This document shows positions 11,636 through 61,867 of a stretch of DNA of 64,000 nucleotides, piece by piece. Under the pieces are notes generated by a model. It did no database searches. It was not told the origin of the DNA and worked only from the letters and a program-made list of their open reading frames with translations. A program made the translations under genes and the position numbers. Within the stretch, counting starts at the first letter, position 1. Every line of letters begins with the position of its first letter. Source of the DNA: Eledone cirrhosa (taxonomy: Eukaryota); assembly GCA_964016885.1 (NCBI GenBank), contig OZ024746.1:42470001-42534000 (forward strand). The letters are read 5' to 3'.

Positions 11636-12855
11636 GAACTAGAGAAGAAATTGGCATGGCCTAGAATCAAAAGGCCTTAAAATTAACCTGTCTAAGACTA
11701 AAGTTCTAGTTTGTAGGAAGGAAAATAGGGTACTGCTCCCATCTGGGAAATGGCCAAGCTCAGTGTGTAGGAAAGAAACTCCATTTTATGTCCAAAATGC
11801 AAAGTATGGGTGCATAAAAGATGTAGTGGGATCACAAGTAAGCTAACTAAGAATATAGATTTTATATGTGGCCAGTGCTCAGGTGCAATAAGTAGCAGCA
11901 AGTGCCCACAGAATACTAGCTCATTACATTGCACAGATGGCTCTATAGAAATAGTGGACACCTTCTGTTACCTGGGTGACACAATCAGCAGTGGTGGAGG
12001 GTGCTCTGAAAGTACAGTAGCTAGAGTCAGAACGGGATGGAAAAAGTTCAAAGAGCTTATACCACTATTGGCCGCTAAAGGGTTCTCTCTAAAAATGAAA
12101 GGCAGGCTGTATGATGCCTGCATACGAACAGCAATGTTACATGGCAGTGAGACCTGGGCATTGTGTGCAGAGGATCTACGCAGACTGGAGAGGAACGAAG
12201 CTTGCATGCTCCGCTGGATGTGTAATAGTAATATACTTGAACGGCAAAGCATAAACGAACTAAGGGAAAAATTAGAAATAAGAGGGATCAGATGCTGTTT
12301 ACTCGAGAGAAGACTATGTTGGTATGGTCACATGATGCACATGAAAGACGACAGCTGTATAAAAAAGTGCAGGGCAATAAAAATAGACGGTAGCCACGGA
12401 GAAGGCAGACCCAGAAAAACCTGAGATCTTTGGTGCTACACAGTAATGCAGAAGACCCGCCTTGCCTAAGTACAAAGCGAAACCTACAGTTAGTAGGCAC
12501 CTCTAACAAAAATACACCCCCGTCCCACTACCGCCACCCCATCCACACCACCCCTTTCGATGTAAAGTTATGTTGGTACCACAACATCCAGTCTGAAATA
12601 AATGGTCGTGTAGGTGTCACGACAAAAAAACACACAGTCTGTAATGTGGCCGTGTAGGTAACACGGTAAAAACCTCCCAGTCCACACTGTAAACGTGGTT
12701 GGTGTTAGGAAGGGCATCCAGCCATAAAAAACCTGCCAGACAATCCTATACGAGCAAGACAACCAATCTTGCCTCAAGTGGGAAAATTCCCGTCCAAACC
12801 CATACAAGCGTGGAAGATGGACGTTAAACGATGATGATGATGATGATGATGATGA
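11636..12855 (+). mobile_element. 5'-truncated RTE-clade LINE with PHD-like finger
   Basis: GLKINLSKTK, then NSILCPKCKVWVHKRCSG...[28 protein letters not shown] and RRLCWYGH..GRPRKT (ORF 11810..12424). The 3' UTR ends in (GAT)n and the element is flanked by (TA)n. Confidence 0.92.
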
Positions 12856-45917: not shown

Positions 45918-45980
45918 ATATTCTATTATATATATTTCAAGGGTACCAAAATTTTTGTACGCTATCATCAGATAAAATAC
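45918..45980 (-). ncRNA. Type-I minimal hammerhead ribozyme
   Basis: Minus strand: gtattttat CTGATGA t-agcgtac aaaaattttg gtaccct-t GAAA tatata TA atagaatat. Stem I is 9 bp with wobbles and stem III is palindromic. Confidence 0.7.
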
Positions 45981-53940: not shown

Positions 53941-54096
53941 ATACATTCATATATATATATATATACATACATATATATACATATATATATATATACACAT
54001 ATATATATACATACATATATATATATGCATATATATATATACATATATATATATACATATATATATATACATATATATATATACATATATATATAC

Positions 54097-54169
<73 letters not shown>

Positions 54170-54184
54170 TATACATATATATAC

Positions 54185-54236
<52 letters not shown>
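53941..54236. repeat. (TA)n/(TACA) microsatellite array
   Basis: Directly visible. Confidence 0.98.
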
Positions 54237-54237
<1 letters not shown>

Positions 54238-55131
54238 CAAATAACCGAACGTAGCCTCTTCGCGGCGGCCTCAATCGAGTATTTATCCAACATTTCGACA
54301 GCATGTAGAAACTGACTAAATATACCATCAACCATACACAATTAGGTGTAAAATTAAAATTTTTTGATTTTTTGATTTTTAATTTATTAATTCTTCATAG
54401 ATCTTAAAAGTGACCAGTTGCAACATGTATATATCTATAACTTTATGTATATGTTAACCTTTATATTTAATAATCTCCCAATAAGTTGAGATTAAATCTG
54501 GCGATATTTGGCTGCGCTTTCTAGCAGCAAGCCTACCCGCCGTAAGCAACCAATCACATTCTTTCTCTCTGGCTTGACCACAGCCACATAGCGATTCTTA
54601 GCCATTTTTGAATCTATTTTTGGCGGGATCGGATTGAAAAACTAGATGTCTAATTTTGAGATTGTCTCCTGATGAATCCTAACTCAGGACATTCCTATTA
54701 TTTGGATGTCTAAAAATAAGGAAGAAACCATGGTAGAGATATAATTACGGTATGTGCGCATTTCTTCTAAGTTTAATTTTGCACCTAATTGTGTATGGTT
54801 GATGGTATATTTAGTCAGTTTCTACATGCTGTCGAAATGTTGGATAAATACACGATTGAGGCCGCCGTGAAGAGGCTACGTTCGTTTATTTGTCGGAGAT
54901 TTCCCCATGAGAGCATTTATTCTTATAGCTTGTTCTAATTGATTTTTTATATGGTTAATTATGCTAATTAGAAGAAGAAATAGTATATATTTTATTATCT
55001 GATGATTCTAAAGACATGATTTATGATATATTGCTCTGATTTTTTAATTTATTAATTCTTCATAGAGCTTAAAAGTGACCAGTTGCAACATGTATATATC
55101 TATAACTTTATGTATATGTTAACCTTTATAT
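54237..55131 (+). mobile_element. Non-coding hammerhead cassette with direct and inverted terminal redundancy (Penelope-dependent or retrozyme-like)
   Basis: Direct repeat 54373-54466 = 55037-55131 (period 665). 54237-54358 is the reverse complement of 54772-54893. Hammerhead at 54663-54741. No real ORF; (TA)n on both sides. Confidence 0.75.
54663..54741 (+). ncRNA. Type-I minimal hammerhead ribozyme
   Basis: tgtctc CTGATGA a-tcct...agga-a GAAA ccatgg TA gagata. Stem III is the palindrome CCATGG and the GUA site ends at 54735. The base of stem II is an A.A mismatch. Confidence 0.72.
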
Positions 55132-55169
55132 ATATATACATATACATATATATATATATATATATATAC

Positions 55170-55200
<31 letters not shown>

Positions 55201-55216
55201 CATATATACACATATA

Positions 55217-55266
<50 letters not shown>

Positions 55267-55267
55267 C

Positions 55268-55298
<31 letters not shown>

Positions 55299-55310
55299 CA
55301 TATATACACA

Positions 55311-55346
<36 letters not shown>

Positions 55347-55351
55347 CATAC

Positions 55352-55400
<49 letters not shown>

Positions 55401-55417
55401 CATATATATATACATAC

Positions 55418-55450
<33 letters not shown>

Positions 55451-55465
55451 CATATATATACATAC

Positions 55466-55562
<97 letters not shown>

Positions 55563-55619
55563 CATATATATATACATATATATATATATATACATATACA
55601 TACATATATATACATATAC

Positions 55620-55689
<70 letters not shown>

Positions 55690-55872
55690 ATATACATATA
55701 CATATATACATATACATATATATATATATACATACATGTATATACATACATATATATACATACATATACATATATATATATATATACATACATATATATA
55801 CATATACATACATATATATACATATATATATATACATACTTATATATATACATACATATATATATACATACA

Positions 55873-55962
<90 letters not shown>

Positions 55963-56069
55963 TACACATACATATATATATATACATATATATATACACA
56001 TACATATATATACACATACATATATATATACATGTATATATACACATACACATATATATATACATATAG

Positions 56070-56108
<39 letters not shown>

Positions 56109-56133
56109 CTTATATATATACATACATATATAT

Positions 56134-56174
<41 letters not shown>

Positions 56175-56226
56175 TACATACATATATATATATATACATA
56201 CATATATATATATATATACACATATG
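55127..56226. repeat. 1.1-kb (TA)n/(TACA) array
   Basis: Directly visible. Confidence 0.98.
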
Positions 56227-56230
56227 TATG

Positions 56231-59222: not shown

Positions 59223-61660
59223 CACACACATACATTAATAACAATAATAATAATAATAACAACAACAATAGTAATGATGACAACAACAACAATAATAATA
59301 TACATATACATATATATATAGACACACACGCACAGACACAAACATATCTACACACACACACACACACACACGATAGCAACTAACAGCGCTGCGATCGAAT
59401 GTGGCTTTTTAGCCCAGCCAATGATCTAAAATGTCTTGCACAGAGTCAGCAACCAAAACATTCACTAGGAATAGCTGGCTGTGGCTGGAGTTCATGTACT
59501 TTTGCATGTCGCTTGAGCCCTCCTGCTGATTTACATTCTCTACCACATGTTTGGCAAGCATGATGAGTAGCATCTCCAACAGCAGCCTGGTAGTCAACCA
59601 CTGGTCTTACTTTATGACTGCGAAGATGACTTTCAGGTCCAGCTTTGCTTAGGCAGAGACTCGCACAGACACTGCATGTCAGCACCACAGGAGGACCCTC
59701 GCCGTCTGGAAGTGCAACAGCAATGCCCTTCCTCACATCCCGCTTTACTTTCTCGTATGCGAATCGAGATGTCTCAAAGGCAACTTTTCCCTCATATACA
59801 GTCTTTCTCCATTTATTACAATCAGCAGCAATATTTTCCCATGTATCAGCAGAGATGTTAGCTTCTTTCAAAGAGGCTTTCAAGGAATACTTATACATCT
59901 TTTTCGGTTTACGTGGAGGTCGTTTTCCTTTAACCAACTCTCCATAAAAGAGTTGTTTTGGTATTCTAGAATCCTTCATCCTGGCAAGGTGACCACTCCA
60001 ACGGAGTTGTTGCTTAAGCACAAGAGCTTCTATACTGTCACACATAGAGCTTTCCAAAATCTCAACATCACTGATGTGGTCCCTCCAGTGAACGCCATGG
60101 ATCCGTCTGAGACACATCTGATGGAAACGCTCCAATTGCTTAAGGTGGTGTCAATATGTGACCCAGGTCTCGCAGGTATAAAGAAGACAAGAGAGCACAC
60201 ATGCCTTGTACACCTTTACCTTTGTCCTCCTGCATATGTCTCGCCAACCCCAGAGTCGCCTTTCTAGCTTTCCGAAAGCATCACTTGCTTTCCTAATCCT
60301 AAGTGAGATTTCACTGTCAAGGTTGCTCTATCGATTGACAGTGCTTCCCAGGTAGACAAACTGATCAACCATTCCAAGTCGTTTACCATACACATAGATA
60401 TTTGGTTCAGTGTACTGCTTACCAGGGGCAGGTTGGTACATGACGACGGTTTTCTTGAGACTGACAGTCAATCCTAGGGCAGTGCAAGCGTCAGAAAATG
60501 CATTCAAAATGTGCTGCATATCACTCTCTGTGTGCGCTACAAGATCGCAATCATCTGCATACAAGAGGTCTCTTATGATTGATGTAAATACTTTTGTCTT
60601 TGCAGCAAAGCGCCTGATGTTAAATATGCTGCCTGAGGTTCGATATTGGATGTAAACACCATGTTCGCAATTCCTGAATGCAATACAGATAACCATTGCA
60701 AAGTATATGGCAAACAGGGTCGGTGCTGGAATATCCCCCCGTTTCACTCCATTTTTTACTGAGATAGGCTCCGACATTAACCCAAGCCTTCATGTCGTCA
60801 TGGAAAGACCTAACTAAAGCAAGGAACTTATCAGGGCAACCAAGTTTCTGGAGAACCTTCCATAATGCATCTCTGTTAACAGTATCGAAAGCTTTTGTCA
60901 GATCGACAAAAACCTGATACAGATCCAAACCTTGTTCCATGCACTTCTCCTGGAGCTGTCTAGCTGAGAAGATCATATCAGTAGTGCCGCGTCCAGCATG
61001 AAAACCAGATTGATGTTCAGGAAGAACACAATCTGCAATGTGTGTCAGCAGACGGTCCAGAAGCACCCTACATAAAACTTTCCCTACGACAGAAAGCAAT
61101 GATATACCTCTGTAGTTCCCACAATCATTCCTGTTACCCTTTCCCTTGTACAAGACCACCATTACTGCATCTCTCCAGTCCTCAGGTACGGATTCATTAG
61201 CCCATATCCTGCCAAACATAGAGTGAAGATGTTGCAGGAGTCTCCCACCACCATATTGTAGGAGCTCAGCATGTATGCCATCCATACCTGGAGACCTTCC
61301 ACTGTTCAGCTTCAAGATAGCCACTGCAACCTCCACAAGTGTCGGAGGTTCTGCGAGAGCTACTTTCACAGGACTTTCTGGAATGAGATTGAGGAAATCT
61401 TCACTGACGACAGACGGCTGATTCAAAAGATCATCAAAGTGCTCTTGCCACCTTCGTAGAATTCCCTGTGAGTCACGAAGAAGTTCTTTGCCATCCTTGC
61501 TGCGAATCGGTGTCACCGAAAAAGAAGACGGTCCATAAACCTCCCGCAAGAGACTGTACAACAGCTTTGTGTTATTGGAATCTGACGCAGTTTGTATCTC
61601 ACCAGCCTTCTCACTCCACCACTGATCCTTCATGAGAGAAAGACTCCGCCTAACACGTGA
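59072..61660 (-). mobile_element. 5'-truncated RTE-BovB-like LINE with RT and C-terminal C2H2 zinc fingers, frameshifted
   Basis: ORF 60620..61720 (SPGMDGI, NYRGISLLS, FVDLTKAFDTV), ORF 60328..60777 (GVKRGD, LYADD, FVYLGS) and ORF 59446..60135 (LRWSGH, two CxxC..HxxxH fingers). The 3' terminus lies at 59072-59105. Confidence 0.95.
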
Positions 61661-61670
61661 TGTATATATA

Positions 61671-61867
61671 TGCCTGTGCCGTGAAGATTTTATAGTGAGC
61701 AAAGGCACTGCACAAAGCAAGTCCCACTCTCTTAACCAAGATGATATTTACCAAAAAGAAGGACAGGTCAACATCATTGGATACCATCAGGGTTGCAGGT
61801 GTTATATCAGAGTTTTCCTTCTCCTAGAATTCTGCCTTGACAAAGGCTAAGGGGTCATCTCTCCCGG
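61671..61867 (-). mobile_element. Internal fragment of the ~610-bp RTE derivative
   Basis: Reverse complement of ~28487-28681; the ORF track shows near-identical peptides at 61632..61850 and 28502..28741. Confidence 0.92.

Follow-up and report, generated by a model that had tools for sequence, protein, structure and literature searches.

The window analysed here is a stretch of 64,000 nucleotides from Eledone cirrhosa (contig OZ024746.1, positions 42,470,001 to 42,534,000). Its positions 54237-55131 hold a cassette that is a single insertion, truncated and sited in (TA)n; the repeat family to which it belongs is non-coding, has a unit of 665 nt and carries a predicted hammerhead. TA-rich microsatellite adjoins the cassette on both sides, and any target-site duplication would be hidden in it. 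The features are listed in Table 1.

Table 1. Features of the cassette and its surroundings (window positions; unit position 1 corresponds to 54376).
Feature	Position	Strand	Remarks
Left TA-rich microsatellite target	53950..54236	.
Inverted arm	54237..54361	-	unit 394-518, copy of 54769-54893; 0 differences from the young-copy majority over 113 sites
Head-to-head junction, short T-rich filler	54362..54372	.	filler repeats the start of the forward arm
Forward arm, ~760 nt (1.14 units)	54373..55131	+	from about 54372; ends at fixed end E2
Bulged hairpin 2	54473..54492	+	directly 3' of the read-through E2 site 54463-54466; G>A at 54484 in this copy
Predicted type I hammerhead	54663..54741	+	predicted cut 54735/54736
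Long imperfect hairpin, ~240 nt	54751..54989	+	conserved across subfamilies
Fixed end E1	55026..55031	+	read through in the window copy
Bulged hairpin 1	55033..55068	+	directly 3' of E1
Second pass over the unit start	55041..55131	+	within the ~100-nt E1-E2 tail; ends at E2 55128-55131
Right TA-rich microsatellite target	55132..56230	.	right limit approximate

All the features listed in the original prediction, which was made from the sequence alone, were recovered. The 94-nt direct repeat starts at 54376 and again at 55041, a spacing of 665, and the forward arm corresponds to the predicted 1.14 turns. BLAST stretches the repeat to 54373 (98/102 identical), partly into TA, and its 5' start lies at 54373-54376 depending on how the T-rich junction is read; one substitution separates the two copies over 82 trimmed sites. 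All five differences between the duplicated segments of the window copy sit on the middle unit. The predicted single forward hammerhead core was found in the middle of the unit (CTGATGA at 54669, GAAA at 54724), with the predicted cut at the junction already proposed; as the window copy carries one forward hammerhead only, it could not release a monomer by itself. The 122-bp inverted segment was confirmed as such (54237-54358 matches 54772-54893 in reverse complement at 118/122 positions, BLAST E 2e-54), and can now be described more precisely as a second arm, the 3' end of which is directed outward. In this copy that arm lacks the usual family end E1, its outer end lying ~135 nt short of it at unit 518, for which we infer a later deletion as the simplest reading.

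No open reading frame of 100 codons was found within the unit, as had been noted, and the listed frames at the unit edges are TA-repeat frames. The GC content of the unit is 0.33. CpG is retained (observed/expected 0.97 in the unit vs 0.34 in the window), but its use as a sign of youth did not hold, as CpG retention is a poor clock here (49/1958 CpG transitions vs 227/11409 at other C or G); the youth of the window copy therefore rests on its 11 differences from the young-copy majority over 653 sites.

Other elements were observed in the window. Broken reverse-transcriptase frames at 60331-61747 on the minus strand (Pfam RVT_1, E 1e-16 and 5e-9) gave no match to four PLE proteins, and look like a LINE remnant. 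A 217-codon frame at 11771-12424 on the plus strand has a weak PHD-finger match at its start, and the remainder resembles a LINE C-terminus. Two hammerhead-like cores of other families lie at 45971 (-) and 20571 (+), and resemble motifs at L161:6851 and L106.

A dispersed family with two fixed 3' ends

In order to characterise the repeat family, pattern searches were performed in the 3.0-Gb genome, for which reversed-pattern controls gave 0-1 matches. The exact hammerhead 20-mer was found 405 times, the exact E1-(TA)n junction 1,142 times and the exact E2-(TA)n junction 164 times (control 0 for both junctions), and the hairpin-2 pattern matched 1,577 times. The unit, whose being single-copy had been named in advance as grounds against the prediction, is thus multi-copy. 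Subfamilies range from 72% to 97% identity to the window copy, and 58 natural cut-to-cut monomers measure 654-681 nt. The family was also found in three contig runs of one sample, possibly the source of the assembly itself.

A set of insertions was assembled from loci L001-L250, most of which had been chosen by one end, by the hammerhead or by a 750-nt query; they formed 207 clusters, reduced to 156 non-redundant ones, which yielded 146 uncut insertions. These comprise 90 simple head-to-head pairs, 45 single arms and 11 more complex arrangements, and support the earlier reading of the inversion as a PLE-type signature. In 72 of the 90 pairs (70/88 without two segmental duplicates) one arm ends at E1 and the other at E2, while E1+E1 and E2+E2 pairs number 0 each. 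Given this choice of loci, what is telling is that no pair carries two ends of one type. The other 18 pairs, including the window copy, have a non-standard end. At 88 head-to-head junctions, filler was present in 35 and overlap in 51, and two were blunt. Three groups of insertions (L007/L014, L103/L104 and L186-L188) have been duplicated along with their flanks, two pairs in inverted orientation.

The 3' ends are fixed at the two sites E1 and E2, ~100 nt apart (97-110 nt in 173/175 read-through junctions, counting overlapping loci and across subfamilies), and the 5' ends are scattered. The copies are thus not freely permuted at their ends, in contrast to the circular permutation that had been proposed as a genome-wide check. 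As only the 5' ends vary, the 94-bp overlap of the window copy is set by a random truncation point, and neither it nor the 1.14 turns is a special length. The arms average ~420 nt; they cross the unit boundary, and 36/167 are longer than one unit, in agreement with the prediction that copying ran past the unit start.

Tandem hammerhead units are also present, in arrays of 7-43 units. In four long arrays the units differ by 1.1-5.1%, with 0-3 array-fixed private variants, and nested shared variants and higher-order repeats can be observed. The nested variants indicate later growth by unequal exchange, and rule out that these arrays are single many-turn products. At L231-L234 (G000:C1:92.985-93.016 Mb) the E1 arm of a two-armed insertion has grown to 43 units, with higher-order repeats and a mean unit divergence of 5%. 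At L090:1500-2280, a different element, tandemly repeated and containing CTGATGA, is flanked by two 48-nt E1 fragments that lie 723 nt apart. On the hammerhead strand, changes that are strictly private include 69 T>C vs 31 A>G (the unit has 250 T and 193 A), and this family-wide T>C excess could be due to G-U misincorporation by the reverse transcriptase.

Hammerhead, bulged hairpins and a candidate PLE partner

The predicted hammerhead has a 6-bp stem I, a 48-nt stem II region with an internal loop and A-A at its base, and a palindromic stem III of 3 bp with a 2-nt loop. Rfam did not detect it at the gathering threshold or at E<=10, and returned TA-repeat noise only. In an alignment of 34 copies, 93.8% of the cells are paired and six pairs show two-sided change, compared with 31-43% for slid controls, and the fold covaries across subfamilies that are 75-100% alike. 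Both core motifs are intact in 82/100 copies among the matches listed. The canonical G10.1-C11.1 pair is present in 10 of the 34 aligned copies, which belong to older subfamilies, and unpaired in 14, including the window copy; the canonical type I form, this pair together with a short helix II, was not found, the stem II region being 48 nt long. In the young subfamily, A-A at the base of stem II is the largest class (78/195 cores) and may weaken cleavage. A palindromic stem III with a 2-nt loop is a form said to need dimer folding (PMC4209133), so that dimer folding is implied for the predicted cleavage.

The ~240-nt hairpin 3' of the cut has 95.7% paired cells and 10 two-sided pairs in 14 sequences, a score that leans towards the structure because both derive from the same alignment. 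On the hammerhead strand the unit folds better than shuffles (z -4.5), and five units gave z-scores of -1.0 to -4.3 vs +1.1 to -0.5 on the other strand, with 8 shuffles each and two of the five units weak. A decayed second hammerhead before E1 (54999-55025) was considered and rejected, as it has no GAAA and is not kept in older subfamilies. The same stretch is similar, in core and short stem II, to the minimal hammerhead found in another family (L156, L160, L169). At L152:6500-7410 a non-coding 459-nt unit, with a hammerhead whose stem II is 50 nt, makes 1.8 turns in (TA)n.

One bulged hairpin lies 3' of E1 and another 3' of E2; for hairpin 2, 103/116 family 20-mers keep 5 bp, a 2-nt bulge and 2 bp, with varying loops. 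A comparable pair was found in one PLE family (L318/L319), which has an 873-codon open frame at both loci with RWR, DKT, YRDD and CxCX5C motifs, a hammerhead upstream and a (TA)n target. Its twin hairpins are 92 nt apart; insertion ends lie directly 5' of each hairpin, at a distance of 94 nt from one another, and keep the register found in the 665-nt family. This PLE family is young, with 40 scored copies that show 96-100% identity, and exact junctions of its second end number 295. A Pfam search of the frame gave no match, and its placement in the Hydra clade was made by motifs and by eye against the alignment in PMC8557442.

The twin-hairpin pattern, which was written after both families had been seen, matched 91/362 loci: 72 with the 665-nt family and 19 of this one PLE family. 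Among 130 control PLE loci (609 kb) it matched only L161, which contains a family copy. Around the ends, the primary-sequence similarity between the candidate PLE and the unit scored 24, against a shuffled mean of 25, and other Hydra families have related but different hairpins. Given the post-hoc pattern, these differing hairpins and the chance-level similarity, L318/L319 is regarded as a candidate, and what ties it to the unit is the pattern, spacing and register of the hairpins. Of 12 PLE loci chosen for their second end, only two had the opposite first end within 1.5 kb. Hydra elements are abundant in the genome, and a Hydra-type fragment lies close to L015. We regard the 665-nt family as very probably a PLE-mobilised retrozyme-type element. 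That its mobiliser belongs to the Hydra clade is likely, and L318/L319 is the best candidate on these sequence features, with about an even chance of being the specific driver.

Other possible partners were discarded. For the PLE beside the family copy at L161, the matching end is a private variant and the tail is ~40 nt, and the GIY-YIG Pfam matches belong to other PLE clades and lack the hairpin pair. L161 and L251-L280 represent an abundant PLE family with ends about 40 nt apart and head-to-head arms, that is, a textbook tail.

Template and proposed mechanism

If cut linear monomers had been the template, 5' ends would pile up at unit 361. Stops at the ribozyme cut are not in excess (2 observed vs 1.6-2.5 expected), and 81/172 arms, not selected for length, cross it. 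No 9-nt window of 5' ends is significant after scan correction (best p 0.055-0.084), including the clusters at unit 492-500, 559-567, 614-622 and 87-95; an apparent pile-up just past E1 was an artefact of the linear reference and vanished on refinement. The arms are short and only 14/198 cross the cut twice, so that many-turn rolling copying is not seen.

Overlapping passes within one insertion differ by 2.1-2.2%. Near-private variants are common to opposite arms in 25 cases and to successive turns in 26, some of them in tandem-expanded loci, and differences that are not shared fall about equally on either pass (55 arm pairs, p 0.17; 45 turn pairs, p 0.29). In a comparison that left out four long arrays and six multi-unit loci, differences between passes fell at common alleles in 45/520 cases (8.7%), close to the null of 7.3% and against 25% for neighbouring insertions, and no chimeric segments between passes were found. 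A nearest-neighbour comparison of passes was set aside as uninformative, because taking the lowest of about 200 candidate values introduces a bias. No A>G editing marks common to passes were found (5 A>G, 13 T>C). The differences thus resemble new mutations, which suggests that all passes were copied from identical sequence, and the genome data point to one circle or a homogeneous multimer as their template. With the cut crossed without a pile-up, the same data alone exclude the cut linear monomer as the main template. Between the two that remain, a circle is somewhat favoured over an uncut multimer.

We therefore consider, with a probability of roughly 0.58, that the cassette family is copied in trans by a Hydra-clade PLE, with a circular RNA monomer as the probable template. 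Transcripts of a locus that has two hammerheads would be cut and ligated into a circle of ~665 nt. The PLE protein would bind both bulged hairpins and cut both strands in (TA)n, and one cDNA would be primed at E1 and one at E2. Each would extend backwards for a random distance, on average about 420 nt, passing the cut site and the boundary of the unit, and the two cDNA ends would be joined head to head. The parts of this scheme drawn from sequence are the two fixed ends, the one-of-each pairing, the scattered 5' ends, the hairpins and the target. The pairing of family insertions matches what was reported for a purified PLE in vitro, in which cDNA synthesis begins at two internal positions that delimit the tail, and the enzyme cuts and extends both strands of the target (PMC11167929).

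The same two-ended copying could have used an uncut multimeric transcript of a tandem array, with a weak or incidental hammerhead and no circle, a reading that we consider possible but hold with less confidence. With the single PLE assayed in vitro, RNA that had not been processed was the main substrate, and mutants of the ribozyme were still inserted (PMC11167929); in vitro cleavage was found in only 1/9 frog retrozyme dimers; the youngest subfamily carries A-A at the base of stem II; and the arrays of 7-43 units, with few private fixed variants, are possible sources of multimers. However, array units differ by 1.1-5.1% today, yet the dispersed passes have neither subfamily chimeras nor uneven splits, an argument weakened by the arrays having been younger then. 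No 5' pile-up marks a transcript start, and the intact core motifs among the matches listed and the covarying fold also speak against an incidental hammerhead.

It is improbable that an autonomous PLE, missed by our searches, which score top candidates only, has the unit as its ordinary pseudo-LTR, the loci being its 5'-truncated ends. Fixed 3' ends, a tail and an inverted arm are indeed ordinary PLE features, and many PLE fragments lie near units in the 230 family-selected loci; in these same loci, no ORF with RT and GIY-YIG was seen running into the unit, the arrangement that the original prediction had named as evidence for an ordinary pseudo-LTR. What lies upstream of the arms is another copy of the same unit, not an ORF, and the cut-to-cut monomers exist as such. 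Among single arms without 5' TA, PLE coding remnants at a distance of up to 900 nt were found only at L176 and L224, and the ORF fragment at L176 breaks off before its end, with a short inverted piece preceding the unit. Moreover, 50 GIY-YIG loci and 52 Hydra-search loci have no extended match to the unit except inserted family copies. Most improbable is a DNA-level satellite spread by recombination or fold-back, or a local misassembly: the nested shared variants of the long arrays are typical of unequal exchange and no contig among those listed bridges the junction of the window copy, but in more than 100 dispersed loci the 3' ends are fixed, the 5' ends fall at random and E1 is strictly paired with E2, the covarying RNA fold is strand-specific, and the duplicated segments of the window copy differ at 5 sites, unlike an assembly echo.

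Relation to known systems and implications

In the features that can be judged from sequence, the 665-nt family agrees with a metazoan non-LTR retrozyme. Like those described in PMC7229834 and bioRxiv 10.64898/2026.07.22.740005, it consists of tandem units that are non-coding and low in GC and each carry a single type I hammerhead, ranges from monomers to long arrays and co-occurs with PLEs, which are the proposed mobilisers (PMC7229834). The unit had been called relatively large and retrozyme-like; the likeness stands, and although it exceeds the typical 150-450 bp (PMC7229834), its size is not exceptional, falling within the range of 51-972 bp given in bioRxiv 10.64898/2026.07.22.740005. Unlike published retrozymes (PMC7229834), the family has a 48-nt stem II region with A-A at its base. 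Circular RNA has been shown for published retrozymes (PMC7229834), whereas the 665-nt family is known here as genomic DNA. The accessible text of these accounts (PMC7229834, bioRxiv 10.64898/2026.07.22.740005) describes neither insertions with two arms and two fixed ends nor a candidate partner by name; in that of PMC7229834 the word "inverted" has 0 occurrences.

The family shares with the PLE Poseidon_Ac two adjacent internal start sites and a tail on one arm only (PMC11167929), with published PLE copies an AT-rich target and a head-to-head inverted truncated copy (PMC8557442, PMC3846280), and with Hydra-clade PLEs the (TA)n target (PMC8557442). The two fixed ends and the tail thus represent the footprint of a PLE tail, at roughly three times the length of 30-40 nt that has been published (PMC11167929, PMC8557442, PMC3846280). 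Poseidon_Ac has an AC-rich stem-loop at the start sites (PMC11167929), whereas the 665-nt family has bulged hairpins and no ORF. Its stem III ACCA-TGGT is as listed for the Hydra-1_Obim hammerhead (PMC8557442), and a GCTC-stem-TT-GAGC hairpin occurs near the 3' end of the record printed, with no header shown, before Hydra-1_Obim in the supplement of that paper. The candidate partner carries the Hydra-clade motifs (RWK-like, DKT, CxCX5C; PMC8557442). Unlike Hydra elements, the unit itself is non-coding, and none of the Hydra elements compared matches it over an extended stretch. Hairpins are not mentioned in the accessible Hydra-clade section of PMC8557442. The Chlamys non-autonomous PLEs, for example MRC1, are likewise derivatives with pLTRs and multicopy head-to-tail insertions, but share 3' sequence with their partners, and most Chlamys PLEs lack canonical hammerheads (PMC8557442). 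The words "hammerhead" and "ribozyme" are absent from the accessible text of an octopus repeat annotation (PMC13282606). A search of the literature from 2021, covering sources other than subscription papers and preprint supplements, found no paper on Penelope tails or hairpins in non-autonomous Hydra-type elements. Relative to the accessible published accounts, three points read from sequence would be new: a strictly two-ended footprint whose tail measures 100 nt, the cut monomer being excluded as template, and an intact candidate driver that can be named.

For animal retrozymes, the moving enzyme and the circle as template have been proposed but not shown in the accessible literature. Here the family extends the PLE tail length from 30-40 to about 100 nt, and a non-coding family and an intact PLE of one genome share start hairpins and tail length, so that both a specific protein and a specific RNA are available for the in vitro assay published for PLEs. 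As a tentative and rather doubtful extension of the reading preferred above, a ribozyme-made 665-nt circle might parasitise one intact Hydra-clade PLE by mimicking its two start hairpins at a spacing of ~95-100 nt, with a PLE dimer priming both break ends on one circle and reading through the ligated ribozyme junction. If such a matched pair were real, hairpin spacing would be a code assigning each retrozyme family to its driver.
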